The notes under the pieces are model-generated. The model searched no databases, had not been told where the DNA came from, and saw nothing but the letters and a program-made list of their open reading frames with translations. Positions 19,728-42,027 of a stretch of DNA of 49,545 nucleotides are shown here, in pieces. Location: assembly GCA_016929755.1 (NCBI GenBank), contig JAFGIF010000187.1, positions 1 through 49,545 of the forward strand, read 5' to 3'. Position 1 is the stretch's first letter; each line of letters begins with the position of its first letter. Made by a program: the position numbers and the translations under genes. The stretch is from Deltaproteobacteria bacterium. Lineage in GTDB: Bacteria; Desulfobacterota; Desulfomonilia; UBA1062.

Positions 19728-19730
19728 TTC

Positions 19731-22813: not shown

Positions 22814-23659
22814 TTAGAGCTGTTTATCCATATGGGATTGAATCAGGTCAGTGCCGTTTTCCCGGAATACCCGGGTATAGAATTCAGCCGAAAGATCAAG
22901 ATCCTTTAAATAGTCAATCTCTTCTTCCCGCGGGTAAATCAGGTTTGGAAAGTCCGAGCCGTAGAGAATACGGTTTTTGTGGCGCTCAAGGAAATCCGGC
23001 GTAAGATCGCATACCAGGGATGCACTGGGCAGAAAAGACCAGGCGGTGTCGAAGTAAATGTTATCGTGTTCTTTCAGCAGGTCGAAAAAATCCCAATACT
23101 CAAAACCTCCCATATGGGCTATATTTGCAGGAAGATCCGAATATCGTTTAAGAAGACGTTTGAAATTATGGACACCAACATACTTTGTGCCTATGGGGCC
23201 TGTCCCCACGTGGAAGAGGATTCTCTTGGAGTTTTCAATCACAAGCTCATAAAGCGGAAAAAGTCGTTCATCATCAGGATAAATATTTTGAACAAGAAGC
23301 TGTAGCTTGAATCCCAGGACCTTTGGGTGTTTCAATACTTTGCGGGCCATGTCCAGGGCATGCTCGTCTCCTGGATGAAAAGCAGCAAAACAGTAGAGAT
23401 CGTCAATCTCGTCCAAGATCCGAAGATTCCATGCATTCAACCCCGGAGCTATACCTTCGCGGTGAGCATAGTTGGAATATACTATGGGGCTTACTCCACG
23501 CTGCCGGAGATAATCAACGCATTGACGATAGTAAAGCCGGTGGATAATATCCAGTTTGTATACCGAGGAAAAATACTCCCAGACGGCATCAAAGAGTCTG
23601 TCCGGGAACAGATGAACATGAAAGTCAATAATATTATCCGGAATTTTCTGCATAATCAT
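22814..23659 (-). CDS. amidohydrolase-2 family metal-dependent hydrolase/decarboxylase-like protein
   Basis: IDFHVHLFPD N-terminal metal motif; TIM-barrel amidohydrolase-2-like length (281 aa). Confidence 0.75.
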   Translation of the reverse strand: MIMQKIPDNIIDFHVHLFPDRLFDAVWEYFSSVYKLDIIHRLYYRQCVDYLRQRGVSPIVYSNYAHREGIAPGLNAWNLRILDEIDDLYCFAAFHPGDEHALDMARKVLKHPKVLGFKLQLLVQNIYPDDERLFPLYELVIENSKRILFHVGTGPIGTKYVGVHNFKRLLKRYSDLPANIAHMGGFEYWDFFDLLKEHDNIYFDTAWSFLPSASLVCDLTPDFLERHKNRILYGSDFPNLIYPREEEIDYLKDLDLSAEFYTRVFRENGTDLIQSHMDKQL

Positions 23660-23719
23660 TGCCTTGTATTGAATCTTTTTAATATATTAAATATATCAGA
23701 TAATCAAGTACTTGAATGA

Positions 23720-24628
23720 TTATTTGTTGTTCAGAAATATTCTCCAGCCAGCCAGCAGTGAGCCTGGAATGAGGTCGAATGCACCCGAGGCCTCGGCAAC
23801 AGGAGTAAAACCGCACTGGCTGCAGTCGATTTCACCCCTGCTTTTCACATAACAACCTTGGGTAATAGTGCCGTCGGGGTCTACATTTGTCAGCAGATGT
23901 TCATGGCATTTCCAGCTATTGTTGATCATGGCTTTCAAAGACCAGGTAGAATTCAGAATCGGGTAACCCTGTCTTTTTAGCATGATTGCACTTTCCATGG
24001 CCAGTCTACGTGTTTTGCGATCAAGTGCCAGCGAAGTTTCGCCCTGGTTGTAGGGGTAGAACAACTGAAGTGTAACTCCTTTAACCTGTGGGATTTGATT
24101 GAGCATATCAAGTAAATTTTCCAACTCCATCCAGTTCTGGTTGTTGATAGTGAAATGAACAAGGATTTTAGGATGAGTTGCTTTCGAAAGGTTTGCTACT
24201 ATCTTGTCAAATGAATTACAGCGCAATCTGTTATGCGTGGATTTGCTGCCATCAATACTGACCCATACAATATCAGTCGGAACATTAAGGTTGAATGTTC
24301 CGTTGGTGGTGACAGCTGTACGCAGAAATTTATTATGTGCAAGTCGGGCCAAATCAGAAAACGTATATTTACCATCTCTCCACATCAGGGGTTCCCCGCC
24401 CTCGAAGACCAGGATCCGACATGCATCATGATACAGACGTTCGATGGATTCAACGGCCGTATTCCAGCTCATGTGGTAGTTTTCCTGTTGAGATCGAAGA
24501 TGAAAAGGGCAGCCTTGGCATGTAAGATTACAGCGGTAGGTCAGCTTGAAACTGGCGATGAGCGCAACTTTCTGCCGCAGAAGTTTTGACCGTAAGAAAA
24601 ATTCTGCAAGTGACGGCAGTACACTCAT
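23720..24628 (-). CDS. radical SAM protein with C-terminal Cys-rich (SPASM/twitch-like) region
   Basis: CNLTCQGCPF CxxxCxxC motif; C-terminal CHEH..GCYVKSRGEIDCSQCGF. The start is ambiguous: ATG at 24628, or TTG at 24679 overlapping the upstream stop. Confidence 0.8.
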   Translation of the reverse strand: MSVLPSLAEFFLRSKLLRQKVALIASFKLTYRCNLTCQGCPFHLRSQQENYHMSWNTAVESIERLYHDACRILVFEGGEPLMWRDGKYTFSDLARLAHNKFLRTAVTTNGTFNLNVPTDIVWVSIDGSKSTHNRLRCNSFDKIVANLSKATHPKILVHFTINNQNWMELENLLDMLNQIPQVKGVTLQLFYPYNQGETSLALDRKTRRLAMESAIMLKRQGYPILNSTWSLKAMINNSWKCHEHLLTNVDPDGTITQGCYVKSRGEIDCSQCGFTPVAEASGAFDLIPGSLLAGWRIFLNNK

Positions 24629-24675
24629 GGCGTCTGCTTTCACATCCAAAGCAAAGTCAGACAAATGCCGTGAAA

Positions 24676-26178
24676 TCAACTGCGTCGACTTTTGGCATAC
24701 CAGACAACTTTCGCAAGGGCTTTCACCGCTGTTTCCGGGCAGGGATAGGCCATGATTCCCTGCTGGTCAAGATAATCGACAGGATTGTTATCAATAGCCA
24801 TGTCGAACATTGCAAGGTCGATAACCGGGATAACGGGTTTGCCGTGTTTTTTGATCAGATCCGTGACCATTTGGAAGAGATTCATTTCCTGGGAGATCAT
24901 GGATTCCGCCTGGCCCTGTGTGAGTTCCTGCGGAATCAATTTCGAATTCTTCCAGCTGATGGCCCTCAGTGTCATGTATCCCAGTCCCATCATGAGAACG
25001 GAATCAATTGCGGAATGTTCCATGAGGATATTAATCGAGTCTGTGATAACTTCAACATGCGATGGGGCTACAAGATCGATGGGGTTGTTTCTGCTCCAGT
25101 AAGCCGGAAGGATTCTGTCGAGTTTCTGTATCAACTCATCATCAAGTGGCTCGACGATCAATCCTTTCCTGAGGCACATGTCAGTGGCAATAACACCCCA
25201 GCCGCCTCCCAGGGTAATGATACCCACCCGGTTGCCTTCGGGAAGGGGCTGAGCGTTCAAGATTCCGGCAACATCTATCATCTCGTCCATGGTTTCCACC
25301 TGAATAATTCCGGCCTGTCTGCACATGGCGCTGAAAACTGTATCATTACTTGCGATTGCGCCCGTATGAGACATGGCGGCCTCGGCACCTTTTTGTGTAC
25401 GGCCGCCCTTGAGCAGGATGATAGGCTTTTCTCTCGAGATTCTCCTGGCGTTGTTAAAAAAGCGCTGGCCATCCCTGATACCCTCGACATACAGGCAAAT
25501 GATGCGAGTTTTTGGGTCCTGCCCAAGGTATTCCAGAAAATCTTCCGTATTGAGATCGCCCTCATTACCTGAACTGATCAGCCGGCTGATTCCGATTTTG
25601 CGGCGCAGCAAACGATAAGAAATGGATGATCCGATATTTCCGCTTTGGGCGATCATACCTACGGAACCGGGTTGCAAGGGTGCTCCGCTCATTAGGATAT
25701 GCATGATAGAAGGGTAGGCGCTGAAAATACCCATAGTGTTGGGACCTGCCAGATGCATTCCCCCGGCACGGGCCACACTGACAATTTCTTTTTCGAGCTC
25801 AGCTCCTTTTGAACCTGTTTCGGAAAATCCGGCTGTTATTATAATTCCAAACGGAATGTTTTTGGCCACGCATTTTTTTACTGTATCAAGCACCAAAGAT
25901 TCTCTGACAACGATGACGACCAGATCGATTGGTTCTGGAATACTATTCAGATCAGGATATACCTCGTGGCCGAACCATGTCCCTCCCTGTGGGTTAACCG
26001 GAAAAACATGGCCTTGAAAACCCCGGTTAACCAGGTGGTGAAGTATTATAAAACCCCATTTAAATATATTATTTGAGGCGCCGATAAAGGCGATCGTTCT
26101 CGGTTCGAAAAGGGAATTCAGCTTCGGCATACTTTCGAGAGTTGAAGGTTGCCCGTAAAGACTTGCATGTTCATTCAT
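24676..26178 (-). CDS. CoA-binding protein, NDP-forming acyl-CoA synthetase alpha-type (no ATP-grasp domain)
   Basis: 500 aa. IAFIGASNN..VFPVNP CoA-binding fold and His loop AMSHTGAIAS. RBS GGGGGGAA. Confidence 0.8.
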   Translation of the reverse strand: MNEHASLYGQPSTLESMPKLNSLFEPRTIAFIGASNNIFKWGFIILHHLVNRGFQGHVFPVNPQGGTWFGHEVYPDLNSIPEPIDLVVIVVRESLVLDTVKKCVAKNIPFGIIITAGFSETGSKGAELEKEIVSVARAGGMHLAGPNTMGIFSAYPSIMHILMSGAPLQPGSVGMIAQSGNIGSSISYRLLRRKIGISRLISSGNEGDLNTEDFLEYLGQDPKTRIICLYVEGIRDGQRFFNNARRISREKPIILLKGGRTQKGAEAAMSHTGAIASNDTVFSAMCRQAGIIQVETMDEMIDVAGILNAQPLPEGNRVGIITLGGGWGVIATDMCLRKGLIVEPLDDELIQKLDRILPAYWSRNNPIDLVAPSHVEVITDSINILMEHSAIDSVLMMGLGYMTLRAISWKNSKLIPQELTQGQAESMISQEMNLFQMVTDLIKKHGKPVIPVIDLAMFDMAIDNNPVDYLDQQGIMAYPCPETAVKALAKVVWYAKSRRS

Positions 26179-26261
26179 TTAATGTTCCCCCCTAATCATT
26201 CTCTCCCGTGCAGAATCATTCTTTTAAGATTCGATAACTTATCCAATTTCATTAGAAATTG

Positions 26262-26990
26262 TCAACCATCGTTGAGTTTTTTCCGGTAGGACTCACGCAT
26301 GCTTTTCAGGTCTGTGGCTTCAACGCAAACGTCCTGGTATTCGCATGTGTCACAATCAAAGTCCATTTCCTGGGCCATCTTGTTCATGGCAGCGATAATC
26401 CTGGTCGTATCATGCGTTATTGCAGCCAGTTTGCGTATGTCCTGCGGGCTGGATGTCACCAGGATGCATTCTACCGCTGCTACAAAATTTAGTTTTTTGA
26501 AATTCCGGATCTGTTTTGATGCAAGCACATCAAAACAGAATCCCTCATCAAGTGCCTCATGGCTGATTCGGCACCATTCACGCTTGAACTGTGAAACAGC
26601 CCTGAGCATGTAACCCTTTAGATCGAGTCCATACCGGACCAGTTCCATTTCACGGTAGCGCTCATACGTGTTTTCTGCGTCAAAGCCGCTGACTTCAATT
26701 AGCACGATTTTACCGAATGGCAGGCTTGCCCCTCGGCTTTCCGGCAGGTCAGGGCCAATCAGGGTAATGTAATTGTCTCTGATTGTGCCTATTTTTTCAG
26801 TCCAGAGTATACAGGAAACTGATTCCATCTGGGGATTTCCCAGCTCGACGGCCATATCGCTTCCCAAAACGACATTTCGGCCCCGGCCTGAAGGCCAGTT
26901 GGTGTCCGGACTGGCCGGCCATGATCTGGGGTTGTCTTTGTGTGCCAGAAAATCCCGGAGATCATAGATTGTGTCTGCAAAAAGTTCCAT
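26262..26990 (-). CDS. stand-alone homologue of the central domain of acetyl-CoA synthase (AcsB/CdhC-like), C-terminal CxxCx5C
   Basis: 242 aa. GSDMAVELGNP...ITLIGPDLPE...LPFGKIVLIEV...W.RISHEALDEGFCF...VT resembles, from memory, the Moorella AcsB middle domain (GDMYVEMGGN...IEVIGPDIDQ...LPLGILVDIY...WLRVSKDAVAKGFRF). The ATG abuts the upstream stop. Confidence 0.55.
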   Translation of the reverse strand: MELFADTIYDLRDFLAHKDNPRSWPASPDTNWPSGRGRNVVLGSDMAVELGNPQMESVSCILWTEKIGTIRDNYITLIGPDLPESRGASLPFGKIVLIEVSGFDAENTYERYREMELVRYGLDLKGYMLRAVSQFKREWCRISHEALDEGFCFDVLASKQIRNFKKLNFVAAVECILVTSSPQDIRKLAAITHDTTRIIAAMNKMAQEMDFDCDTCEYQDVCVEATDLKSMRESYRKKLNDG

Positions 26991-27776
26991 CTAGGATCTG
27001 TCCTGTAGCGCTTTTCGGGCAACCAGGGCTGCGCCGAGGGCTCCATTGATTTGTGGATCCAACCCGGTTTTTGTGAGATTTCTCCCCAGGGCCGCTTCGA
27101 GGGCCGCAACCATGCCCGGATTTTTTGCAACGCCACCGGTAAAGGCAATGTGCTCTTCCAGTTCGATACTCTTGGCAAGTGCTGCAACACGGTGGGCCAG
27201 TGCTCTATGCAGGCCACTGATAATATCGGGCGGGGACGTCCCCTCATTGACAAGGGAGATAATTTCTGTTTCGGCAAAAATTACACACTGGTTAGAAATA
27301 GTAACCGGAGATTTTGAAGTTTGCGATACCCTGCCCATTTCTTCAATACCAATACCAAGAGCATCGGCCATGACCTCAAGGAAACGCCCGGTGCCGGAAG
27401 CACATTTGTCATTATAAATATATCGGATTACATTACCGTGGGCATCCAGTCGGATGGCCTTGGCATCCTGACCGCCGATATCGATCACCATGCGTATGGA
27501 TGCATCTTTCCACTGGGCACCCTTGCCATGACATGAAATTTCTGATTCGACAGCATCAGCAAACGGGATTTGATTGCGACCGTAGCCGGTTCCCACACAA
27601 TACGCAATTGAATCCACTAAGACTCCCGCCTGCTTGAGTGCCAGATCCATGACTTGTCTGGCCGATGTTTCAGGTTCGGGTGCGTCCTGAATAATCTGTG
27701 AAGCGAGAATGTTATTTTCATCCAGGATGACAGCCTTGGCAGTCAGAGAACCCAAATCACATCCGGCAACTATCAT
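26991..27776 (-). CDS. BcrAD/BadFG/HgdC-type activase ATPase (subunit 2)
   Basis: MIVAGCDLGS acetate/sugar-kinase fold start. Cluster cysteines in NDKCASGTGRFLE and SNQCVIFAETE. ATGA overlap with the upstream gene. Confidence 0.9.
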   Translation of the reverse strand: MIVAGCDLGSLTAKAVILDENNILASQIIQDAPEPETSARQVMDLALKQAGVLVDSIAYCVGTGYGRNQIPFADAVESEISCHGKGAQWKDASIRMVIDIGGQDAKAIRLDAHGNVIRYIYNDKCASGTGRFLEVMADALGIGIEEMGRVSQTSKSPVTISNQCVIFAETEIISLVNEGTSPPDIISGLHRALAHRVAALAKSIELEEHIAFTGGVAKNPGMVAALEAALGRNLTKTGLDPQINGALGAALVARKALQDRS

Positions 27777-28564
27777 GGATTTTCTCCTGTATACATTTGT
27801 TTGGCTATAATAGCCGCCCCGAGGGCCCCCATAATTTGAGGATCAAACTTCAATCGTTTGATTTTCACACCCAGCATTTTTTCAAGATGGCGAACTACCC
27901 CGGTATTTTTGGCTACACCCCCGGTCATACACACATCTTTTTCCAGGCCGACGTTGCCCACGAGAATGGCAACCCTGCCGGCCATGGCCCGGTTGATGGC
28001 TTCGGCAATATCACCTTTCGACTTCCCAATATTCAGGTGATGAATTACTTCGGCCTGGGCCCAGACAGTACAGGCCGATGAAAGTGTAAGTGGTTCCTGG
28101 TTTTGCCCGCCTTTTAGACCCCCGAGTTCATCAATCGCCACTCCCAGAAGCTTGGCCATGACCTCCAGAAATCTGCCGGTACCGGCGGCACATTTATCAT
28201 TTGTGGTAAATTTCTGGATGGTTCCTTCTTTATCGATTCTAATGGCCTTGCAATCCTGGCCGCCGATATCTATAACCGTCCGCACACGGGGCATAACCCA
28301 CAGGGCACCTTTTCCATGGCAGGTAATTTCCGATACCGCCTCTTGAATAAATGGGATCTTGTTGCGTCCATAGCCGGTACCCACACAGCACATAACCTGT
28401 TCCTCATGCACGGCTGCCTTTTTCAGAGCCAGCTCAAAAACCTCCCTGGCTGATTCTTCCGGTCTGGTTTTCGATCTGATAACACAATAACCCAAAACAT
28501 TTTTGTTGTTGAGAATTAAGGCCTTGCTGGTAAGTGAGCCGACATCGCACCCCGCAACGATCAT
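27773..28564 (-). CDS. BcrAD/BadFG/HgdC-type activase ATPase (subunit 1)
   Basis: MIVAGCDVGS; NDKCAAGTGRFLE and SSACTVWAQAE. ATGA overlap with the upstream gene. Confidence 0.9.
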   Translation of the reverse strand: MIVAGCDVGSLTSKALILNNKNVLGYCVIRSKTRPEESAREVFELALKKAAVHEEQVMCCVGTGYGRNKIPFIQEAVSEITCHGKGALWVMPRVRTVIDIGGQDCKAIRIDKEGTIQKFTTNDKCAAGTGRFLEVMAKLLGVAIDELGGLKGGQNQEPLTLSSACTVWAQAEVIHHLNIGKSKGDIAEAINRAMAGRVAILVGNVGLEKDVCMTGGVAKNTGVVRHLEKMLGVKIKRLKFDPQIMGALGAAIIAKQMYTGENP

Positions 28565-29964
28565 GCTCCGATCCTCCTTAATGAAATAAACTCGTTTAAT
28601 TTATCCGTTATTGATTCCCATGACTGCACCCTGTCATCAAACCCATCGGCATACAAAACAAGGGTAGGGTAGCCCGCCTTTTCAAGGTCGCGCGCAATGC
28701 ACTTGATTACACCCCAGGTATTCCGGCAGCCCATGGTGCCGACATACACAATGAAATCGACATTGAGCACTCTGGCGGCCCCCAGGGTATCATCGAGCAT
28801 CATCCCCGGTGCATCATACGGGCCCCGTATCTGCTTGACCATGGGCATGCGCGAAACCTGGTCAGCCAGCGAATCGATGATAGCCTCATCCGAGCTGTCG
28901 TCTATATCGTACGTCTGGTCCTGTTTTTCTTTTGCGTACACTACATCTTTTTGCCAGAAGGTGAACAGCATTGAGCCCAACATGCTGATATCGTGCTCAT
29001 CGATCCAGTACCAGAAACGGGCATTCGTGGTATAGTGATCGATATAACAGAACAGAGCTCTGGCTTTTTCCCTGCCCGAAAGGGTGCCGGACAGATTTTT
29101 ATCGGCGATTCCTTTTGCGGTTTGCAGCATTGATTCCAACAGCAGAGTGTATTCTCTGGTGCCACCCATCATAAACTTGCCGCCATAGAGCATCAGATCG
29201 TACATGCCGGGCAGCGGCGAAGGGACCAGGCTGGCCAGATCAAAAAGCTCGCAGGCAATCTCGTCCTGTCTTTTAATCTCGCCAACGATTTCTTTGAGAC
29301 GTGCGAAATCAAGTTTTTTGCCGGTCTGCTTTTCCAGAAAGGTAATCAGGTTGCGGAAGTCTCGCCGGTGATATTTTGTAGCCCGCTCGTCGCTGAGAGT
29401 AGGAGGGCTGTTGAGCTGAAACATGGGTTTGTCGAGAAAGGCCGAGGCAAATGCAAAGGAATTGGCATTGGTGTCACAGATGCCGGGAGAATCAAACACG
29501 ATAAAATCGGGTTGTGTGCATAAACCGGCCAGGTAGGCGCCAAGGGCTCCGCGCTGAGCTGAACAGGATGTCTCGGTAAAACCAACTTCGCAGCAGTAAT
29601 CCAGGAATTCAGTTGTGCCGCGACGCAGTACAATTGTACCCAGTACGGTCCAGACTTCGAGACACATGGGCACGATATCAAAAGCATACAGGATCGGGGG
29701 TGCCATGCAGAACGATGTCAGGGCCGTGAATTTGCCGTTTTCCTTGGAAGTTACACACATTTTCATGTAGCCGGCCATCAGTTTCAGGAAGATATCACCG
29801 GGCTGGCCAAAGCGCATGAATGCTTCCAATACAGGCCCGTAGTGCGGCACATATTTCAAGAGATTGTGATACTCCTTGCAAAAGCCTTCATTGGTTTTTG
29901 AGGCGCATTCCAGGATGGTCCAGAGATTCCAGTCGTAATTATATTCCATGGTCTCGCGTTTCAT
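28561..29964 (-). CDS. 2-hydroxyacyl-CoA dehydratase / benzoyl-CoA reductase BcrB/BzdO-like large subunit (paralogue B)
   Basis: 467 aa. Conserved cysteines in YCCEVGFTETSCS, GICDTNANSF, FCYIDHY and GTMGCRNTWG. Confidence 0.8.
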   Translation of the reverse strand: MKRETMEYNYDWNLWTILECASKTNEGFCKEYHNLLKYVPHYGPVLEAFMRFGQPGDIFLKLMAGYMKMCVTSKENGKFTALTSFCMAPPILYAFDIVPMCLEVWTVLGTIVLRRGTTEFLDYCCEVGFTETSCSAQRGALGAYLAGLCTQPDFIVFDSPGICDTNANSFAFASAFLDKPMFQLNSPPTLSDERATKYHRRDFRNLITFLEKQTGKKLDFARLKEIVGEIKRQDEIACELFDLASLVPSPLPGMYDLMLYGGKFMMGGTREYTLLLESMLQTAKGIADKNLSGTLSGREKARALFCYIDHYTTNARFWYWIDEHDISMLGSMLFTFWQKDVVYAKEKQDQTYDIDDSSDEAIIDSLADQVSRMPMVKQIRGPYDAPGMMLDDTLGAARVLNVDFIVYVGTMGCRNTWGVIKCIARDLEKAGYPTLVLYADGFDDRVQSWESITDKLNEFISLRRIGA

Positions 29965-30002
29965 TCTAATTCATCATAGTATTGTAATATAAATTAGTTT
30001 AA

Positions 30003-31409: not shown

Positions 31410-31421
31410 TCAAACTCTCCT

Positions 31422-31652
31422 TTACAGATTCATGTTGAGGGTGGCACCCTCTTTGATGCGGCTGATATAAAAACCGGCCCGTTCCTTTAGTATGCCCACA
31501 TCAGTTTTCTTTGAGATGTTTTTGAGTGCCTTGAGTGCTGACTCGTGAAACAGCGTCAGGGCATCGATGGACCGTTGCCTTTCAGCCAGAATGCGGTTTG
31601 AATCAAGGGCAATTTTTTTTAACACCTCAATGGTAATCGCTTCGGTATCCAT
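31422..31652 (-). CDS. small helical protein (76 aa), HEAT-repeat-like
   Basis: Good RBS (AGGGAAGGAA). Sits between dehydratase-family genes with 12- and 17-nt gaps. No cysteines. Confidence 0.5.
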   Translation of the reverse strand: MDTEAITIEVLKKIALDSNRILAERQRSIDALTLFHESALKALKNISKKTDVGILKERAGFYISRIKEGATLNMNL

Positions 31653-31669
31653 CAGTTCCTTCCCTTTGA

Positions 31670-32800
31670 TCAGATTTTTTCCAGAAATGCGTCGATACGC
31701 ATTTTGACCCTGCCGGATTCGACCAACGGTCCGTACTCCCGCTCCATTTTCAGGCAGGCAATGCCCGCTGCCTCGAGATCGCGCACAAAGATGCCGTTTT
31801 CAGAACCATGCAGATCACAAAAGCGGATGTTCTGCAGGATCACTCCATCGACCCTAGCCTCGACAACCTTCTGCTTGATGAAATTCAGGCGCTCTTTATA
31901 GTACCCGAACATGCGCGGACAGTAGGCATGATTTAAATACCTTTTTGCCAGAGCCTTTACGGGATCAGTGGTTTCTTCAACCAGATCATGGTGTGTTCTG
32001 GATCCAAAACACATGCTGTCGGCAACGATCACGGCACCGCAGTCTTCGATTACCTTGAAAAAGTCAAGATCATCATTAATGCTGCCCACTATCATCAGGC
32101 GTTTTCGTCCCGGTATGATCTTGCAGGTGGTTTCAATGTTATCCAGAAACCCGCTAAGAATTGGAATATACGTTTCTTTTGGCATGGCTGTGTTTGCAAC
32201 GACCAGAGCCAGGGCATCCTCGCCGGTTATTCTGCAATCTTCACCGATTTTGATTTGATCCAGCTGCTTCAAGAGACGGCGGCCTTGGTTGTAGAGTTTT
32301 ATCGAATTGTTCAGGTCTTGATCCGTAACAGAGATCGAAAAATGCTCTTCAATACTTTTGATGAAAAGTTGAATTTCCTCTTCAAACCATTGAAGGCTGT
32401 AATCCGTGACCTTGTGCGGCACCCCGAAGTAGTGGAAATACCCGGGCCGGATACCCGGGATATCTTTATCCGCCTTTCGCCAGCATTCATCAAGGCGGCG
32501 CATGGAATCACAGCCGTTTGACATCACGGTCCCGTCGAGGAAGGAGTATTTTTTGTTTCCGGCCAGTTCAAGCACGCATTTCGGGAAACTGCAGATTACC
32601 GGGCCGAAATAGGTGTCACCTACGGAAAGTGATGAAATGCCGATACCCCGCAAACGAAACGGCAACAGACCGGCAGCATGAATAATCTCTTCGGGTACAT
32701 AGGTGCACGGATAACCAACAACGAATTTACCGGATTTTTTCCAGGCCTCGACATACTCATTGAAAATACTTCGGGCTACCTGCTTGAAGTTTTCGATCAT
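31670..32800 (-). CDS. 2-hydroxyacyl-CoA dehydratase / benzoyl-CoA reductase HgdB/BcrC/BzdN-like small subunit
   Basis: 376 aa. YPCTYVPEEIIHAAGLLPFR, SNGCDSMRR, YCPRM and RFCDLH are typical of the HGD-D family. ATGA overlap with the upstream gene. Confidence 0.85.
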   Translation of the reverse strand: MIENFKQVARSIFNEYVEAWKKSGKFVVGYPCTYVPEEIIHAAGLLPFRLRGIGISSLSVGDTYFGPVICSFPKCVLELAGNKKYSFLDGTVMSNGCDSMRRLDECWRKADKDIPGIRPGYFHYFGVPHKVTDYSLQWFEEEIQLFIKSIEEHFSISVTDQDLNNSIKLYNQGRRLLKQLDQIKIGEDCRITGEDALALVVANTAMPKETYIPILSGFLDNIETTCKIIPGRKRLMIVGSINDDLDFFKVIEDCGAVIVADSMCFGSRTHHDLVEETTDPVKALAKRYLNHAYCPRMFGYYKERLNFIKQKVVEARVDGVILQNIRFCDLHGSENGIFVRDLEAAGIACLKMEREYGPLVESGRVKMRIDAFLEKI

Positions 32801-34086
32801 GATTCACTCCAGTTTGCTGCAAGCATGGAGCGCAAGGCCTGCAAGGCCTCTTCCATTTCGTCTGTATGATCGATATCAGTTGAGCCAATCAATTCACACA
32901 AGCCCAGGATCAATGGGGGCAAGAGTTCTGTAACAACAGGAGTGAGAGCGTCTGATACTTCCGGGATCAACCACTCACAGGTATCCTTAAGCGCAGATGT
33001 ATCGATTGAATCGGCGAAATCCTTAAGCAGTCCACCAAAGAGTTCGGGCCTGACTGTATGCATACGGTTGATTATTGAGAGCAAAGAATTCGTAATATCG
33101 GCCATCTTCTGGGTATCAATGTCAGAAATGCCGCTGTTGGCAGCTTCTGCAAATTCATCATCCAGGTCGTCATAGAAAGCAATTTTGTGGGAAACGCTGC
33201 GGATGCCGGGATTTTTCAGTGCTGCATATGATTTCATGCTAAAAAGCAGGGTCTGCGGGTTCTGGCTGAGAACATTGGCCAAAGAACTGGCGATGGTTTC
33301 CTTGTCCTCAGCAAGAGCAATGCGGGACTTGGTGAGTATTTCCGGATCGATAGCGGCAAGGAAATCGTTAAGAAAGTCTAAAAGATAAAATTCGAAAAGT
33401 GATTTGTCGCCTTTTGCCAGCAGTGCACTGCCGGTATGCAGCCTCCTGATCAGCTCGGATATTGAATTGGTCAGTTTCGCTGTTTCTTCTCCACTTAGTT
33501 CACGCAAGATCGAAAGCAGAATATCGGCGGTCAGGTCAGGGCCAAGGTTCTGTAAGAGCGGTCGTATGATTTCAGAAAGACCCTTGATCGATGTGTTACC
33601 GATAGACAGTAAAATTCCCACCAGACAACCGATTTTAGCCGGGTAGGGCCAGATTGCATTATTGATCGATTCAAGAGTCTTCAGCAGGCACGCTTCTGAG
33701 CCTTCCACCAGTTCTTTCAGTTCCCCGAAGTCAGTATGGCCTATCAGATCGGTTATCGATCCAGTGCGTTCTTCGGCATGGCAAACCGGATTCTTCTGGT
33801 GGGCGGCATTGATGTTCCTGGCATAGTTGGTAAGAAGGTCACCCAGGTCACAGGAAAGTGTTGCATTGTTTTGCGGTGATTCATTTTTCAGTGAGCGGGA
33901 AATAAGCCCATTAAAAGGTTTGGCGATTTTTTGCCGTATCCGACTGCCCAGCGACCACTGGCCGAGTATATCACGGGCGATGCAGAGAATCAGCCTTCTG
34001 GGTCCAGCGGAAAACAGCGCCCTGGATATGATCTTGCTGGTCTGATCTGTCAGATTACCTGCATCCTGCCGGCTTAATTCATTCAT
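32797..34086 (-). CDS. helical protein of unknown function (long paralogue)
   Basis: ATG at 34086 has GGAGG 9 nt upstream; the track start at 34095 is a TTG abutting the RBS. Shares a module with the 214-aa and 144-aa proteins upstream. Confidence 0.6.
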   Translation of the reverse strand: MNELSRQDAGNLTDQTSKIISRALFSAGPRRLILCIARDILGQWSLGSRIRQKIAKPFNGLISRSLKNESPQNNATLSCDLGDLLTNYARNINAAHQKNPVCHAEERTGSITDLIGHTDFGELKELVEGSEACLLKTLESINNAIWPYPAKIGCLVGILLSIGNTSIKGLSEIIRPLLQNLGPDLTADILLSILRELSGEETAKLTNSISELIRRLHTGSALLAKGDKSLFEFYLLDFLNDFLAAIDPEILTKSRIALAEDKETIASSLANVLSQNPQTLLFSMKSYAALKNPGIRSVSHKIAFYDDLDDEFAEAANSGISDIDTQKMADITNSLLSIINRMHTVRPELFGGLLKDFADSIDTSALKDTCEWLIPEVSDALTPVVTELLPPLILGLCELIGSTDIDHTDEMEEALQALRSMLAANWSES

Positions 34087-34178
34087 ATTATTCAACCTCC
34101 AATGTATTATAATCGTGTCAGTTTCGTGAAACCTGATGCTTCATCACATTACAAATTCTTTTTTGCCGGGTTTACTCC

Positions 34179-34805
34179 TTATTTCCCTTTGTCTGTAAGG
34201 TAGGCTTCGAACATTGCCATGTTGCATACGATAAGTGTTTTAATACATTCTTTGCGCGATGCATCTTTCTCCATCAGATAACTATGTAGGACCTGTAACG
34301 CCATACCCACGGCTGCATGTCCGAAAAGGAATGGATCAACCCCGTCGATAATTCCTTGATCTATCCAGCGCGTTGTGTCTTCAGCCAGATCATGGGCGAG
34401 ATTGCAGAAATAATTCCAGGAATTGTAGTCGAATTCTTTATCCACTCCGAAGCTTCCACGCAAGATCATCATCAGTTGCTGGGGATGGCTGTCGACAAAA
34501 TCAAACAGGGCGGTGTACATCTCAAGGAGCGTTTTTCTGCGGTCATGGTAATCCCAGATGTCAACAGGTTCTCTGATGAGTTTGAGGTGAAGCCTGAGGT
34601 TTTCAACGCTGTTAATGGTAATCTGCTCAAAGAGGTCGCGTTTGTCATTGAAGTAATTATAGAATGTTCCTGCAGAAACACCCGCGGCTTTGACAATATC
34701 CATTACCTGAGTATTGTGATAACCTTTCTTGCTGAACAACTCACGGGCAGTATCGAAGATTAATTCCCGGGTTATTTCGCGCCTTTTCTTCGCAATATTT
34801 GACAT
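34179..34805 (-). CDS. TetR/AcrR family transcriptional regulator
   Basis: N-terminal HTH FDTARELFSKKGYHNTQVMDIVKAAGVSAGTFYNYFNDKRDLF. Confidence 0.9.
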   Translation of the reverse strand: MSNIAKKRREITRELIFDTARELFSKKGYHNTQVMDIVKAAGVSAGTFYNYFNDKRDLFEQITINSVENLRLHLKLIREPVDIWDYHDRRKTLLEMYTALFDFVDSHPQQLMMILRGSFGVDKEFDYNSWNYFCNLAHDLAEDTTRWIDQGIIDGVDPFLFGHAAVGMALQVLHSYLMEKDASRKECIKTLIVCNMAMFEAYLTDKGK

Positions 34806-34918
34806 ATCTGGGCTATGCCTCCTGAATACAAAAAAATTGAAAATATGTTACTAAAAGACAGTGAAGAGTCATTACCTGTCAATGGTTGTATCTCCCATAT
34901 CAATTCCATTTTTTGGTA

Positions 34919-35563
34919 CTATATTAATTTAGCAAAGCGTTTACGCAGCCTTGTGATCAGGAGCTTGCCGCTCCACGGCAGGATCGGAAACAGTTTCAGA
35001 TCCAGCAGGGCATGGGCCATTACCTGGGCCGCATCACTGAGTTCGTCGGTATCGAGGTTGCTGATCACATCGGAAACAAATGTGCCTATGCTTTGAGGAT
35101 CATCTCTGCTGAGGTCATTGATCCGGGTAGTTATTGCATTTATACTCTCTGCAATAATACCCGGTCCCCTCTCCATGATACTCTGCTTTAGTTCGGGTGA
35201 ATTCCTCCATGCATCTGTTGCCAGCTTGTTGATTGCCTGCCCGCACGCTTTTAGAGAATCCTGATTGATATCATCAACAAGACTCGTGGTAAATTGAACT
35301 AAAAGCCGGGGTGAAAATTTGTCGCCCATTTCGCTGACAAGTTGAAAAACCGTATGTATCCCCGAGTTGATCAAGGCGGGCAGGGTTGCAATGAGTGCCA
35401 GGGTCAGCTCAGGATCCTGCCACAGGTTGGTTGGTTTGCAATGGCTGTAATCCTTTGAGACCATAGAACGCATTTGTACACGCAGCATGTCCTTGATAAA
35501 CGGGGTGCTGATAAGCTCTTTCAGAATACCGACGTGCTTGTTTCCATCAGTGGATATCTGCAT
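34919..35563 (-). CDS. helical protein of unknown function (214-aa paralogue)
   Basis: LWQDPELTLALIATLPALINS...MGDKFSPRLLVQFTTSLVDDIN parallels the 144-aa protein. TAATG coupling with the upstream gene. Confidence 0.55.
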   Translation of the reverse strand: MQISTDGNKHVGILKELISTPFIKDMLRVQMRSMVSKDYSHCKPTNLWQDPELTLALIATLPALINSGIHTVFQLVSEMGDKFSPRLLVQFTTSLVDDINQDSLKACGQAINKLATDAWRNSPELKQSIMERGPGIIAESINAITTRINDLSRDDPQSIGTFVSDVISNLDTDELSDAAQVMAHALLDLKLFPILPWSGKLLITRLRKRFAKLI

Positions 35564-35997
35564 TATGGTTGGCCTTTGTCTTGAGTTACTGAATCATGAC
35601 CGGCTTGCTGCAGCAACTCTTTCAATAGCGGAGAGAGATCCCGTGCCAGTGGTTGTAGGTTTTGAATGATGCGCTGCAGTCTGACTGCATCAATTTCATC
35701 AAGCAGCGATCCCACGAATCCGGCCAGCAAATCCGGGGTAAATTTATCATGGATCTGTATAAGCAGTTCATCAATGGCCCTGATCAGAGAGTTTGCTACA
35801 CCAGGAAGTGCCCCCAGAAGCCCCAGGCTCACTTCGATATCCTGCCATAGCAGAGTTTTTACCAGTTCAGGGCTTGATTCAGGATCAATGTTTTTCAGCG
35901 TGATACGCAGATTTTCTTTGAACTCAGGCTTATTCAGAAACCCGGCCAGCATCCGGTTGGTAGTATTGATAACACCTCTGTTATGGTTGGCATGCAT
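35563..35997 (-). CDS. helical protein of unknown function (144-aa paralogue)
   Basis: LLWQDIEVSLGLLGALPGVANS...IHDKFTPDLLAGFVGSLLDEID. The AGGAGA RBS lies inside the end of the upstream acyl-CoA dehydrogenase gene. Confidence 0.55.
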   Translation of the reverse strand: MHANHNRGVINTTNRMLAGFLNKPEFKENLRITLKNIDPESSPELVKTLLWQDIEVSLGLLGALPGVANSLIRAIDELLIQIHDKFTPDLLAGFVGSLLDEIDAVRLQRIIQNLQPLARDLSPLLKELLQQAGHDSVTQDKGQP

Positions 35998-36009
35998 TGT
36001 TTGTCTCCT

Positions 36010-37290
36010 TTAGAGGGTTTTACAGTTGAAGAAATACCGGGCGGCTTCCATCTGGCAGAGCTGCTTGCCGCCCATCCAGAGCTGGATAATCTTGACATCA
36101 CGCCAGTGTTTCTCGATATCCCATTCACGGTCAGGACCATATGCACCCAGCACATCCATGGCACGGCCGAATATCTCCACGGACTTGTCCGAAATAAAGT
36201 CTTTGATATTGCGGATTTTAGCGATGGTTTCCTCTGAGCCGAGTTCGTTGCCGAAGGGCATGTTGCGGCGGTCACCGATCCTGGCGGCTTCGTGCCCTAA
36301 TATCCGGCAGATATCTATATCTCCGGCAATACGTCCGATCACACCGGCTACGGCATCGTTTTCCTTGAGTGTGCGATTACAATAGGTACGTGTTGAAACG
36401 AATTCATAGAGCCGTTCATACAGGTTCAGCATGGCGCCGGTAAGAAAGCCGCAACTTGCAACCTGGCCCCAGGGAATTACCTCTACGAAGGTCTGGGCAT
36501 CCAGGACCGGGCCGTGGGCCCGGTACCAGGAAGGTACCCGCACATCCTCGAACCAGATATCACTGTTTTTGTCGGCTGCCATGCCGGCTTTTTCATACGG
36601 GTTGCCCTCGCTCACGCCTTTGGTATCTGTCGGCACGAAGATAATGGCAAAATCATCTAAGTCACTGGAGCCGAGCTTTGTTGTACAGGGCACACCGAAC
36701 AGTTTTGATACCCCGGCCGAATTGGTCGGCCAAAGTTTATGTCCGTTGATAACCCATTCGTCACCATCCAACCGGGCAGTGGTTCGTAGTGTTTTCCCGC
36801 CCAGAAGCCCTATATTTTCGATATCAGCGCCACCCTGGGGCTCGGTCATGGTAAGCGCTGAGAATACGGCACAATCGGAATTGCAGAACATGGGGGCGAA
36901 TTCTTTAGCCAAGCGCCAGTTTACATGTGGTTCGATCAGGATGGTGGTCAGTGGCCATAATGTGACCAGAAAGGCCACTGCCATGCCGGTGTCTGCCCGG
37001 CCGACTTCTTCTGAAAGGGCATAGGAAGTCATGAAGGTGCTGTCTGAATGGCCGAGTCCCCAGCCGCCAAGTTCCTCCGGAAAAAGGGCTTTCTGTAAAC
37101 CCAGTCCCTTGTTGCCCATGAGCTTGTCAAAGGCGGGCTCGATCAGCTTGTGCTCTTTCCAGTCTTCGTCAAAGCGCCTGCGGAATGGGAGAACTTCCTC
37201 GTCGGCCCATTTCCGGATAACCGTGCGCAGGTGTTTGTCCATGGGCGATATGTATTCCAGCGGACGAGAGAAATCGTCAAAATGTTTCAT
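36010..37290 (-). CDS. acyl-CoA dehydrogenase family protein
   Basis: ACAD-like N, middle and C-terminal domains (LTMTEPQGGADI, ...IQLWMGG). ATG at 37290 forms an ATGA overlap with the upstream stop, with AAGAGG 8 nt upstream. Confidence 0.88.
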   Translation of the reverse strand: MKHFDDFSRPLEYISPMDKHLRTVIRKWADEEVLPFRRRFDEDWKEHKLIEPAFDKLMGNKGLGLQKALFPEELGGWGLGHSDSTFMTSYALSEEVGRADTGMAVAFLVTLWPLTTILIEPHVNWRLAKEFAPMFCNSDCAVFSALTMTEPQGGADIENIGLLGGKTLRTTARLDGDEWVINGHKLWPTNSAGVSKLFGVPCTTKLGSSDLDDFAIIFVPTDTKGVSEGNPYEKAGMAADKNSDIWFEDVRVPSWYRAHGPVLDAQTFVEVIPWGQVASCGFLTGAMLNLYERLYEFVSTRTYCNRTLKENDAVAGVIGRIAGDIDICRILGHEAARIGDRRNMPFGNELGSEETIAKIRNIKDFISDKSVEIFGRAMDVLGAYGPDREWDIEKHWRDVKIIQLWMGGKQLCQMEAARYFFNCKTL

Positions 37291-38534
37291 GAGCATACCT
37301 CTTTGCAGTCATAGAAAAAGCGGGCAATATCCATTTTGACCGGAATGTCTGCGGCCACACCGCACAGGGAGGACTGCACAGTCTTTATATCACGCCAGTG
37401 TTTTTCAACATGCCATTCTCTGGCATAGCCGGCCGAACCCATCAGTTCCATTCCACGGTTGAGCGCATTCAGTGCACTGTCCTGTACACTGGACCCAATC
37501 ATGCGGGCAATGGTGTAGATGCTCTCGCCGCCGATGCCCCTAAGTGCAAGGGGATCGGCCATGATCTGGCTCAGACTGTAGCACAACAGGCGGGCGCAGG
37601 TGATTTCTTGGGCAACCGTTGCCAGGACAGAGGCGCACAAAGGATTTTCCTTCATGGGTATGCCGCCCTTGATCGTGCGGCTTTGGGCCCATTCGGTCAG
37701 GATCTCGAAAAAATTCATGGCGGCCCCGATGCTTACTCCCCCCAGCAGCAGGTTCAGCCACACGTACAGCTCTTCCACAGCACCATCCCTTGAAATGATA
37801 TATTCTTTGGGTATTCTGACAGATTCAAACGAGATATCTGTGTTTTCAGAGGCATCCAGGCCGGTCTGTTTTATCGGCAATCCTTTTTTTACGCCAGAGA
37901 TGTCTGCGGGGACAAAGGCCAGGCATATCTTCCCGCTGCTTTGCGCACAAACCACACACAACAGGTCGGATGCTTTTCCAAAGCCGAAAGGTCTCAGGTT
38001 TTCGCCGCTGACCACGTATTCGTTATCATCGGCTGCAATCCCGGCAAGCACGGACATGCCCCTGAATAGTGGTGTTTTCCGATCGTTTATACCGGCACCT
38101 GGCAGGATCGCTGTGGAAGTCTTGAGTTTATCGCTTAAATAGAGTGGAGCGAGGGCATCGCACAGGTCGTCCTTAATGTTAGGATGCATAGTAATAGTGG
38201 CAAAAATTGCATAGTCAAGAGCGTTAGCCAGACCAATGGAGGCATCCCCCCGGCCAATTTCAGTGAATGCTGTCAGAATTGCGGGTGCATACGAGGGGCT
38301 GTTCCAGCCATAACCATCGTATTTTTCGGACAAAACAAGCCGCTTCAGGCCGATATCTATGCCGAGTTTTCTGCATTTTTCAGGGAAGAGCAGGGTATAA
38401 TTCTGCTGATAGTTCAGCCTGTCGGATATGATTTCTTTGTCGGCCCACTGCCTGATTGTGGTGGAAAAACTGCGGGCATCTTCATCCACCCAGTGCTTGG
38501 GGTATATGAACAGTTTATCCAGATCGACACTCAT
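37287..38534 (-). CDS. acyl-CoA dehydrogenase family protein
   Basis: ACAD-like C-terminus (GSAGYAREWHVEKHWRDIKT). ATG at 38534 has AGGAGG 5 nt upstream, so it is preferred to the track start at 38552. Confidence 0.88.
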   Translation of the reverse strand: MSVDLDKLFIYPKHWVDEDARSFSTTIRQWADKEIISDRLNYQQNYTLLFPEKCRKLGIDIGLKRLVLSEKYDGYGWNSPSYAPAILTAFTEIGRGDASIGLANALDYAIFATITMHPNIKDDLCDALAPLYLSDKLKTSTAILPGAGINDRKTPLFRGMSVLAGIAADDNEYVVSGENLRPFGFGKASDLLCVVCAQSSGKICLAFVPADISGVKKGLPIKQTGLDASENTDISFESVRIPKEYIISRDGAVEELYVWLNLLLGGVSIGAAMNFFEILTEWAQSRTIKGGIPMKENPLCASVLATVAQEITCARLLCYSLSQIMADPLALRGIGGESIYTIARMIGSSVQDSALNALNRGMELMGSAGYAREWHVEKHWRDIKTVQSSLCGVAADIPVKMDIARFFYDCKEVCS

Positions 38535-38552: not shown

Positions 38553-38624
38553 AATTCATGGATAATTTTACATCCAATAAAAACCGAATGAATTCAAAAT
38601 AATACTTGGTAATGAAAATTCATT
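38553..38624. promoter_or_regulatory. candidate operator set (AATTCAT/ATGAATT heptamers, palindrome AATGA-N4-TCATT) upstream of the supercluster
   Basis: AATTCAT at 38553-38559 and 38617-38623, and its reverse complement ATGAATT at 38588-38594. Palindromes GAATGAATTC (38586-38595) and AATGAAAATTCATT (38611-38624). Confidence 0.3.
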
Positions 38625-41964: not shown

Positions 41965-42027
41965 TATTAATATTATTGAAGAAATTATCAATTTATTGAT
42001 TAAATAAAATCTCCTTCGTTATCACCA

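Follow-up and report, generated by a model that had tools for sequence, protein, structure and literature searches.

A Conserved Gene Cassette for a Putative New Clade of ATP-Dependent BCR/HAD-Type Iron-Sulfur Enzymes in Anaerobic Bacteria

Among the most reducing enzymes known are some members of the benzoyl-CoA reductase (BCR)/2-hydroxyacyl-CoA dehydratase (HAD) family, for which no more than a few reactions have been assigned. Which reaction might a further system of this type catalyze? The question is raised by a stretch of 49,545 nt from a Deltaproteobacteria bacterium (Desulfobacterota, Desulfomonilia, UBA1062; GenBank assembly GCA_016929755.1, contig JAFGIF010000187.1, positions 1–49,545), hereafter the window, in which a cluster of 16 co-directional genes, all on the minus strand, runs uninterrupted between positions 22814 and 38534 (the outermost open reading frame, ORF, opens at 38552). 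The original prediction for this locus, made from the sequence alone, was an ATP-driven enzyme of the BCR/HAD type that acts on an unassigned CoA thioester and has accessory parts that have been described in neither of the two classes. Profile searches, a tree, a score gap, and the literature support that prediction. We propose that the cluster encodes a new clade of ATP-dependent BCR/HAD iron-sulfur radical enzyme, most likely a two-electron reductase acting on an acyl-CoA thioester, and we give this proposal about an even chance of being right.

Catalytic Core of the Predicted Enzyme

The proteins of the window were profiled with Pfam and NCBIfam, with the gene list taken from the ORF table; identities to reference proteins are BLASTP values. 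The core of the predicted enzyme comprises three HGD-D-type subunits and two BcrAD/HgdC-type ATPases. The beta-type HGD-D subunit HGD376 (376 aa, 31670–32800) has BzdN (8s02_B) as its best match in the Protein Data Bank (PDB), with an E value of 1.9e-38 and 28% identity. The [8Fe-9S] cluster of BzdN is bound by Cys36/73/100/263/293/327 (PMC11971306), and in a pairwise alignment these residues pair with C32, C70, C97, C264, C294, and C328 of HGD376, all of which are kept in 80–81 of 81 family members. With this six-Cys signature HGD376 is a putative [8Fe-9S] double-cubane subunit. HadC has no Cys at the first of the six double-cubane positions in a pairwise alignment that was read at that position only.

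Two genes encode alpha-type, catalytic HGD-D subunits, namely HGD468 (468 aa, 30003–31409; Pfam HGD-D) and HGD467 (467 aa, 28561–29964), which are 64% identical to each other. The [4Fe-4S]-OH2 cluster of BzdO has Cys95/128/380 as ligands (PMC11971306), and these pair with C134, C163, and C413, which are invariant in the HGD468 family and are kept in HGD467 too. Two further BzdO residues, Trp46 and Glu65, fall beyond the aligned region. The alpha family carries the signatures GFTETSCS, GICDTNAN, and GTMGCRNTWG, and the profile of the 468-aa family matches HadB (E 2.4e-17), double-cubane cluster protein (DCCP; E 1e-11), and BzdO (E 1e-8).

ATPase 1 (263 aa, 27773–28564; Pfam BcrAD_BadFG, E 1.9e-55) is coupled to its neighbors by ATGA overlaps on both sides, and ATPase 2 (261 aa, 26991–27776) follows. 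The two are 52% identical and are distinct paralogues, both of which are retained in nearly all complete related loci. C125 and C165 are invariant in ATPase 1, as are C125 and C164 in ATPase 2, so that each ATPase is predicted to carry two Cys for a bridging [4Fe-4S] cluster at positions that we take to match the cluster ligands of HgdC. The activators of 2-hydroxyacyl-CoA dehydratases are homodimers from one gene. A six-Cys subunit together with two different ATPases therefore narrows the options towards a Bzd-like reductase over a dehydratase.

Relationship to Characterized Enzyme Families

No protein of the cluster meets any NCBIfam equivalog cut-off (bzdN/O/Q, bcrA/B/C/D, HadB/C, or double_cubane), and the only NCBIfam cut-off passed is that of TIGR00241, a generic activase domain model, by an ATPase. 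The scores against cut-offs, in bits, are 141 of 454 for bzdN, 26 of 449 for bzdO, and 192–214 of 380 for bzdQ; 126 of 421 for bcrC, 160 of 578 for bcrA, and 124–134 of 313 for bcrD; and 32–43 of 750 for HadB and 143 of 700 for HadC. For HGD376 the best of the scanned models is double_cubane (NF040772), with 172 of 350 bits. Profile searching with Pfam and NCBIfam thus placed the subunits in no characterized equivalog.

A rough neighbor-joining tree without support values, in which the BzdN, MbdN, HadC, and DCCP references were taken from PDB alignments, puts the HGD376 family and a second, more distant family described below as sister clades apart from all four references. The beta-type subunit accordingly lies outside the characterized references in this tree, and the alpha-type subunit is set off by a score gap: when the alpha-family profile was searched exhaustively against 1.84 billion cluster representatives, seven full-length or nearly full-length matches scored at least 429 bits, and the next full-length proteins scored about 290 bits and led into a continuous tail. 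Given the drop from 429 to about 290 bits, we regard the alpha family as compact and well separated. Full-text searching of the literature found no description of the cassette and no published pathway operon syntenic with it. These genes go unmentioned in genome papers on Smithella M82 and Desulfomonile, which are carriers or relatives of carriers, and a paper on a benzene degrader notes merely an undetected Hgd-like cluster.

For the core, three characterized systems are the closest comparisons. The Bzd class I BCR (BzdNOPQ; 8S02, PMC11971306) shares a six-Cys BzdN-like and a three-Cys BzdO-like subunit and two different BcrAD-type ATPases with bridging-cluster Cys. It differs in that identity to BzdN is only 28% and BzdO is found by profile alone (1e-8), in two active-site residues that are discussed later, and in that the catalytic subunit is duplicated here. 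The cassette also has extra parts, namely the helical protein hel432, a 76-aa protein, a protein like the A2 domain of acetyl-CoA synthase (ACS), and usually, although not here, a CooC-like ATPase; and among the window ORFs searched there is no ferredoxin and no dch/had/oah gene. The dehydratases with their activators (HadBC/HadI, HgdAB/HgdC, FldBC/FldI, and LcdAB/LcdC; 3O3M) share the three-Cys catalytic [4Fe-4S] cluster, and HadB is the nearest solved relative of the alpha subunit. They differ in having one homodimeric activator, as against two ATPase paralogues here, and in HadC having no Cys at the first position, as against six cluster Cys in the beta subunit here; and a CoA-transferase was not seen in the cluster or its flanks in Pfam scans. 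DCCP with DCCP-R is a homodimer that uses the double cubane as its active site and has one ATPase gene (6ENO; PMC7317905); the six-Cys signature is shared, whereas the 376-aa subunit is here paired with a three-Cys catalytic subunit and two ATPases.

Conservation and Modular Organization of the Cassette

We scanned one genome per species and obtained 267 matching loci, 79 of which were fetched; onto these we mapped the 16 window proteins, and all their ORFs were clustered. Most of the recurrent neighbor clusters were labeled solely by tblastn to window proteins, and some of their representatives were profiled. HGD468 has 598 homologues with 53–70% identity, all from uncultured anaerobes and bearing generic names only. 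A core with the order hel432, HGD376, (76-aa protein), HGD468 in one or two copies, ATPase 1, ATPase 2, and CdhC-like protein was found in nearly every complete locus, always in the same order, across several phyla among the 79 fetched. Checking the neighborhood in other genomes thus bore out the cluster, whose order recurs in 79 loci, and this recurrence is far beyond chance. Because the core is conserved in order and translationally coupled, we count it as a unit of selection. Hosts named in the records are Smithella, Syntrophaceae, Desulfomonilia, Desulfobacterales, Desulfatibacillaceae, Leptospirales/Spirochaetes, Bacillota, and one Myxococcota metagenome-assembled genome (MAG); one cultured carrier of the cassette is Desulfatiferula olefinivorans (JCM 14469, with JCM14469_16980). 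The duplication of the alpha subunit is present in Smithella and some Desulfomonilia and is absent in other lineages.

Around this core the make-up varies. An upstream module of two acyl-CoA dehydrogenase (ACAD)-like genes and two helical-protein genes, in the order (TetR), ACAD421, ACAD428, hel144, hel214, (TetR), is present in about 40 loci. Loci of Desulfobacterales, Leptospirales, and Bacillota have a short GMC-family flavoprotein instead of the ACAD module, sometimes together with an enoyl-CoA hydratase. Thirteen genes, from ACAD421 to the CdhC-like protein, keep their order in many loci belonging to different genera, and because hel144 and hel214 are paralogous to the core protein hel432 the ACAD module appears tied to the core module. 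Downstream of the CdhC-like gene, 47 loci encode a CooC-like P-loop ATPase of about 255 aa with a conserved CGKGGVGKT Walker motif and GCxC, and further downstream 13 loci encode a ferredoxin-domain protein and 7 a flavodoxin-ferredoxin fusion. A generic enoyl-CoA hydratase occurs in 7 loci, and enoyl-CoA hydratase, AMP-ligase, or thiolase genes adjoin the cassette in some.

The last three genes of the cluster form a tail that is rare but recurrent elsewhere. The ACD-alpha gene recurs in L015, L017, and L019, and L085 and L086, relatives with 85% identity, have it as well; ACD-alpha and radical SAM genes are adjacent in L017, and radical SAM and amidohydrolase genes in L029. Recurring tail genes always lie on the same strand, 2–6 kb past the CdhC-like gene. 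The locus had been described as a supercluster; mapping of the loci shows it to be modular, with a conserved seven-gene core, a frequent ACAD/helical module, and a variable ACD-alpha/radical SAM/amidohydrolase tail. An apparent fused ATPase of 523 aa in L083 is read as an ORF-calling artifact, as only its residues 259–510 match an ATPase.

Taken by sequence, the hybrid architecture of a double-cubane subunit and a dehydratase-like catalytic subunit is that of a distinct, widespread, and uncharacterized clade. To our knowledge, BzdN had been the sole double-cubane subunit with a defined catabolic role. No reaction has been assigned to the compact, highly conserved branch described here, which occurs in at least 267 genomes at the species level; its carriers are syntrophs, sulfate reducers, and spirochaetes, and they come from digesters, sediments, and oil-impacted sites. 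New with respect to described members are the accessory parts, namely the helical paralogues, the 76-aa protein, and a truncated ACS module, to which most genomes add the CooC-like ATPase, while the finding is not categorically new because the core belongs to a known superfamily.

Many loci contain a second, distant set after the CooC-like gene; its members are an HGD-beta' with six Cys (about 32% identity), an HGD-alpha' (about 25%), and one ATPase (about 43%). It lies at 9968–13377 of L069 and is also found, for example, in L008, L015, L021, L024, L030, L038, L042, L070, and L073. A gene for a GntR-like regulator comes after the set in Desulfobacterales-type loci such as L064, L069, L070, and L073, and two of these, L064 and L069, additionally encode a TRAP-type binding protein there. 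This set may be a separate, uncharacterized double-cubane enzyme. None of this set is present in the window.

A Stand-Alone Middle Domain of Acetyl-CoA Synthase

The last gene of the core (26262–26990) encodes a 242-aa protein that matches Pfam CdhC (E 2.4e-11) and resembles a stand-alone middle (A2) domain of ACS with a C-terminal CxxCx5C motif. Its sequence and profile matches are confined to ACS residues ~334–482 in Moorella ACS numbering, and it scores 42 bits against a cut-off of 356 for the cdhC equivalog. The AlphaFold2 (AF2) model, with a pLDDT of 81.6, had only ACS chains as Foldseek matches (E 1e-11 to 3e-6). A structure preprint on the ACS of C. autoethanogenum reports that acetyl-CoA is bound mainly by A2, with the adenine stacking on Trp405. 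In the alignment to 6ytt_A, Trp405 pairs with W139 of the 242-aa protein, which is invariant in the family.

The motif C213-x2-C216-x5-C222 is likewise invariant, and these are the only three conserved Cys; the Cys-Gly-Cys nickel site is not present in the family. The CxxC lies about 24 residues past the A2 match, which is presumably the spacing of Cys506/509, the first cubane ligands of the A-cluster, in Moorella ACS, a positional argument rather than an alignment. The likeness to ACS (AcsB/CdhC) thus comprises the A2 fold, the CoA-stacking Trp, and the CooC-like ATPase with its conserved CxC that follows in 47 loci. In contrast to ACS, A1 and A3 are missing and only the A2 domain aligns; where the A-cluster of ACS uses four cubane Cys and Cys-Gly-Cys for the Ni-Ni site, there are three Cys here; and neither CODH nor CoFeSP genes are present here. 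A homologue of the 242-aa protein, P0277, is naturally fused to a C-terminal 2x[4Fe-4S] ferredoxin domain, and this fusion hints at an electron-transfer role of the ACS-like protein.

Helical Proteins and the 76-aa Protein

Three helical proteins had been taken to be paralogues, and comparison of their family alignments with hhalign agrees, with probabilities of 99.9% for hel144 versus hel214, 97.5% for hel144 versus hel432, and 98.6% for hel214 versus hel432. The core protein hel432 (429 aa from ATG 34086, with the ORF extending to 34095; 32797–34086) lies directly upstream of HGD376 in 67 loci and is here translationally coupled to it by an ATGA overlap. Its 46 homologues besides the window sequence are mostly hypothetical or unnamed, three carrying evidently spurious JGI labels, and the family has no conserved Cys. 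The AF2 model (pLDDT 78.7) is all-helical, and a Foldseek search of the PDB gave no match with E<1; we rejected the BAR, ESCRT-III, and Vipp1-type neighbors of hel432, which had E>1 and reflect generic long helices. The genes for hel144 (144 aa, 35563–35997) and hel214 (214 aa, 34919–35563) are joined by a TAATG, and hel144 is syntenic in loci with the ACAD pair. The 76-aa helical protein p76 (31422–31652) is unrelated to the three paralogues by hhalign and is kept at 51–71% identity beside the HGD468 gene or genes in about half of the loci (25 by ORF clustering). Neither Pfam nor NCBIfam gave a match for hel144, hel214, or p76.

Acyl-CoA Dehydrogenase-Like Pair, Regulator, and Tail Genes

The first gene of the cluster encodes ACAD421 (37287–38534; about 415 aa from ATG 38534, the ORF opening with TTG at 38552), which matches Pfam Acyl-CoA_dh_1/_2/_N, and the second, overlapping it by 10 nt, encodes ACAD428 (428 aa, 36010–37296), a flavoprotein subunit with three ACAD Pfam domains. 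The two are adjacent in about 40 loci. ACAD428 is 70–82% identical in most loci, and its weak best NCBIfam matches, far below their cut-offs, are the cyclohexane-1-carbonyl-CoA and Desulfococcus-type glutaryl-CoA dehydrogenases. Its FAD loop TEPQGGAD (TEPxxGAD) is invariant, and the position of MCAD-E376 is a Met in an invariant LWMGG that replaces the YEGT with the catalytic Glu; the position of an IVD-E254-type Glu, read by hand from the IVD sequence onto the 7szv alignment, appears to be Gly. ACAD421 has no Pfam middle domain, has AILPGAGIND in place of TEPxxGxD, and has no canonical catalytic Glu.

From these sequence features the pair probably forms a heteromer in which one subunit binds flavin and the active site is non-canonical. 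Heteromeric ACADs of the alpha2beta2 type include the steroid ChsE/FadE pairs and PimCD, and two adjacent, overlapping ACAD genes, one without the FAD-binding loop, are common to these and to the pair described here. The pair differs from them in that both proteins lack the C-terminal catalytic Glu, similarity to the pimC/pimD models is negligible, and two helical paralogues always accompany it.

The TetR-family regulator (34179–34805; Pfam TetR_N, E 1e-18) has weak NCBIfam matches of the FadR, FasR, KstR, and AcrR types, and many loci have a TetR gene either in the corresponding place or upstream of the ACAD genes. A near-perfect palindrome of 22 bp, TGGTAATGAA-AA-TTCATTATCA (38607–38628), lies in the divergent promoter region of the cluster and is a candidate TetR operator.

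In the tail, the ACD-alpha protein, which is of the alpha type of ADP-forming acyl-CoA synthetases (500 aa, 24676–26178; Pfam CoA_binding_2, Succ_CoA_lig, Ligase_CoA_2) has CoA-binding and ligase-CoA domains and an SHTGA loop, is without ATP-grasp, and scores 428 bits with TIGR02717 against a cut-off of 567. The radical SAM protein (319 aa, 23720–24679; Pfam Radical_SAM) is like the PTO1314 family (TIGR03961, 120 bits against 306), has a CNLTCQGC motif, and has no relative found in the PDB. The Amidohydrolase_2-family protein (281 aa, 22814–23659; Pfam Amidohydro_2, E 3e-24) has no NCBIfam or PDB match.

Elsewhere in the window, on the plus strand at 10549–12678, is a fused, full-length ADP-forming acyl-CoA synthetase of 709 aa with alpha and ATP-grasp parts that stays below NCBIfam cut-offs, beside a 132-aa ORF at 12688–13086. 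This fused synthetase could in principle supply an ATP-grasp function for ACD-alpha.

Pathway Genes Absent from the Window

Dienoyl-CoA hydratase, hydroxyacyl-CoA dehydrogenase, and ring hydrolase genes (dch/had/oah type), a ferredoxin, an AMP-forming ligase, and a CoA-transferase had been listed as absent, and as far as the window was searched they are. The Pfam scans covered the 16 cluster genes and the flanks, and NCBIfam covered selected ORFs elsewhere, from position 8900 onwards; the whole window was searched by tblastn with representatives from related loci (FeS436, flavodoxin-ferredoxin, GMC, enoyl-CoA hydratase, and AMP-ligase). Family-III CoA-transferases were hence covered by the Pfam scans, and dch/had/oah-type dehydrogenase and hydrolase genes by Pfam and the selected-ORF NCBIfam searches, enoyl-CoA hydratase being the only one of the dch/had/oah types covered across the window. 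By tblastn, the GMC, enoyl-CoA hydratase, AMP-ligase, and ferredoxin-domain partners of other loci are absent from the window, as is the flavodoxin-ferredoxin fusion. Dienoyl-CoA hydratase, hydroxyacyl-CoA dehydrogenase, and ring hydrolase were also not seen, apart from a generic enoyl-CoA hydratase in 7 loci, among the recurrent neighbor gene clusters of the 79 loci, and most of these clusters were not profile-annotated. Neither a family-III CoA-transferase nor a 2-hydroxyacid dehydrogenase lies in the cluster or its flanks, 2-Hacid_dh being found only in the near-identical loci L001–L003. A search with Rfam for a riboswitch or other RNA clue to a ligand gave only a tRNA-Thr.

Proposed Reaction and Alternatives

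If the cluster encodes a reductase of an acyl-CoA thioester, its parts could work together as follows. A low-potential donor, a role in which the ferredoxin-domain proteins of related loci could serve, would reduce the ATPase heterodimer, and hydrolysis of MgATP would drive electrons to an [8Fe-9S] store in the 376-aa subunit, from which they would pass to the open-site catalytic cluster of the 468-aa and 467-aa subunits. There the thioester carbonyl would be activated as a ketyl-type radical and the substrate reduced. The ACS A2 domain would hold the CoA moiety through its conserved Trp and may relay electrons through the three-Cys site; the ACAD-like heteromer would take a neighboring acyl-CoA redox step, ACD-alpha would supply or recycle the thioester, and TetR would regulate the cluster, with the three helical paralogues and the 76-aa protein as structural or adaptor subunits. 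The CoA-thioester context is given by the ACAD-like genes adjacent in about 40 loci and by enoyl-CoA hydratase, AMP-ligase, or thiolase genes in others, as well as by ACD-alpha here and in related loci and by the A2 domain with its invariant Trp. Identification of the substrate would add a low-potential reaction to anaerobic carbon metabolism and would also give an ACS-derived domain a function outside the Wood-Ljungdahl pathway.

Several observations weigh against the reductase. The alpha subunit is nearer to HadB (2.4e-17) than to BzdO (1e-8) by profile, and in the alpha family His131 of BzdO is replaced by an invariant Asn166 and Glu381 by an invariant Arg414; with these two residues replaced, BCR-like chemistry does not necessarily follow. 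The canonical catalytic Glu is missing from both ACAD-like proteins, which makes a dehydrogenase role uncertain. An ATP-grasp partner of ACD-alpha is found in neither its gene nor the cluster, the CooC-like gene of 47 related loci was searched for and is absent from the window, and Pfam scans of the flanks and tblastn across the window did not find a gene for the electron donor. Any assignment of the substrate from sequence is a guess. The host range (Smithella, Desulfomonilia, Desulfatiferula, Desulfatibacillaceae, and Leptospirales) offers circumstantial hints in favor of a fatty-acid or hydrocarbon acyl-CoA over benzoyl-CoA.

Given that HadB stands closer to the alpha subunit than BzdO does, a dehydratase of the Had/Hgd/Fld/Lcd type is a serious rival, although we consider it unlikely. 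In such an enzyme the ATPases would provide one-electron activation, the HGD pair would dehydrate a 2-hydroxyacyl-CoA, and the ACAD pair would interconvert enoyl- and acyl-CoA. A dehydratase with its activator and an ACAD is the established logic of the had and fld operons, in which an ACAD gene adjoins the enzyme genes as in this cluster; a D-2-hydroxyacid dehydrogenase gene lies close by in L001–L003, and an amino-acid-type ABC transporter is encoded divergently upstream here and in 12 loci. Against these stand the conservation of two distinct ATPase paralogues, where dehydratase activators are single-gene homodimers, and the six-Cys double-cubane set of the beta subunit, where HadC has no Cys at the first position. 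The scores also remain far from the dehydratase models (at most 43 of 750 bits for HadB and 143 of 700 for HadC), Pfam scans gave no family-III CoA-transferase in the cluster or flanks, and the ABC-transporter synteny belongs to one lineage, in which the transporter is more conserved than the cluster.

A bolder form of the reductase proposal, which we consider doubtful, is a multi-component metalloenzyme of a kind not yet described. Here a cut-down ACS module would present an acyl-CoA to, or wire it to, an ATP-driven double-cubane reductase, with the assembly carried by dedicated helical scaffold proteins. Its low-potential reaction would remove an obstacle to the anaerobic degradation of acyl-CoAs derived from fatty acids, alkenes, or alkanes, by a chemistry unlike that of BCRs or dehydratases. 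The three-Cys metal or Fe-S site of the ACS module may then be matured by the CooC/AcsF-like ATPase that is present in most genomes.

That the cluster encodes one more isoenzyme of the dearomatizing aryl-CoA reductases we judge improbable. The substrate of such an isoenzyme would be benzoyl-CoA, a methyl-, hydroxy-, or halobenzoyl-CoA, or else a bicyclic analogue, and the alicyclic product would be taken up by the ACAD pair. The N/O/P/Q-like subunit set with its double-cubane signature would suit such an enzyme, as would the presence of cyclohexane-1-carbonyl-CoA and Desulfococcus-type glutaryl-CoA dehydrogenases as the weak best matches of ACAD428 and of aromatic degraders among the relatives of the many Desulfobacterota hosts. 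The subunits nevertheless score 26 of 449 bits with bzdO and 141 of 454 with bzdN, His131 and Glu381 of BzdO are not kept, ring-pathway genes are found neither in the searched parts of the window nor among the recurrent neighbors, and known BCRs offer no place for the helical, ACS-like, and CooC-like parts. A plain benzoyl-CoA reductase in particular is unlikely because the active-site residues differ, ring genes were not seen, and Leptospirales and Bacillota MAGs carry the cassette.

The proposed reductase takes a CoA thioester, and the same core could instead serve a substrate without CoA, as a DCCP-like reductase of small molecules or an enzyme that modifies lipids, with the helical paralogues binding a hydrophobic substrate or the membrane. 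The plasmalogen synthase PlsA/PlsR, of the same superfamily, would be the comparison for a lipid-modifying enzyme. Four points would fit: double_cubane is the best NCBIfam model for HGD376 (172 bits, below the cut-off), the Foldseek neighbors of hel432, all of them non-significant, are membrane binders, the hosts degrade lipids and hydrocarbons, and a GMC-family flavoprotein takes the place of the ACAD pair in many loci. We think this improbable as well: the Foldseek matches of hel432 have E>1 and hence are not evidence, and DCCPs are homodimers with one ATPase gene, while the cassette sits among ACAD, enoyl-CoA hydratase, AMP-ligase, thiolase, and ACD-alpha genes and its ACS A2 domain retains the CoA-stacking Trp.

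It is very improbable that the shared direction of the 16 genes is incidental and that a common system comprises just the HGD and ATPase genes, for although the tail is missing in most related loci, the ACAD module is swapped for a GMC flavoprotein elsewhere, the TetR gene is flanked by gaps of 83–113 nt, and promoter and terminator scans were uninformative, the stretch of 13 genes that starts with ACAD421 and ends with the CdhC-like gene keeps its order in many loci from different genera, hel144 and hel214 are paralogous to hel432 of the core, the ACD-alpha/radical SAM and radical SAM/amidohydrolase pairs recur downstream in independent lineages, and seven junctions are coupled or abutting.

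Gene Layout and Genomic Surroundings

The gene content given in the original prediction agrees with Pfam and NCBIfam, which identify two ACAD-like proteins, a TetR, three HGD-D subunits, two BcrAD ATPases, a CdhC-like protein, and the CoA_binding/Succ_CoA_lig, radical SAM, and Amidohydro_2 proteins. The number of genes had been given as 17, whereas 16 are counted in the ORF table and the prediction's own inventory also sums to 16; the count of 16 stands because the largest gaps (113, 83, 83, and 60 nt) are too small for another gene. The ATGA overlaps reported at 37287–37290, 32797–32800, 28561–28564, and 27773–27776, the TAATG at 35561–35565, and the TAG|ATG abutment at 26990/26991 are each found in the sequence, and there is an additional TTGA overlap at 24676–24679. 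Altogether seven junctions are coupled or abutting, comprising five overlaps of 4–10 nt, one TAATG overlap, and one abutment. For the first gene, the start at ATG 38534 that had been assumed is the most likely one, with an AAGGAGG Shine-Dalgarno sequence. Promoter and terminator scans of the cluster gave counts at chance level and do not give the operon boundaries.

Divergent from the cluster, on the plus strand at 38813–41833, are an unknown 188-aa ORF and an ABC transporter of the polar-amino-acid type (SBP_bac_3, permease, and ATPase). The divergent arrangement recurs in 12 related loci with 61–86% identity. We rejected the transporter as a clue to the substrate, since its conservation (80–86%) exceeds that of the cluster and the arrangement is restricted to a single lineage, which points to shared ancestry and lineage synteny and probably not to a functional link. 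Directly downstream of the cluster, on the minus strand at 18720–22601, are a 956-aa hybrid sensor with PAS, histidine kinase, and receiver domains and an ADP-ribosylglycohydrolase; a neighbor weakly labeled as this sensor (HK956) was found in one related locus only (L051), and the two are not conserved partners of the cassette. A KamA-family radical SAM aminomutase is encoded on the minus strand at 8917–10056; it scores above the cut-off of TIGR00238 and below the equivalog cut-offs for lysine, glutamate, and arginine 2,3-aminomutases. Beyond the transporter, a tRNA-Thr(CGT) at 41893–41964 is followed by a block of minus-strand genes up to 49308, and the GC content falls to 0.38 at the end of the window. 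This block contains an 851-aa protein (44567–47122), a candidate primase-like protein whose single weak match is to a family named hypothetical protein, and a tyrosine recombinase (48085–49308), and the region 41893–49308 is probably a mobile element integrated at the tRNA.

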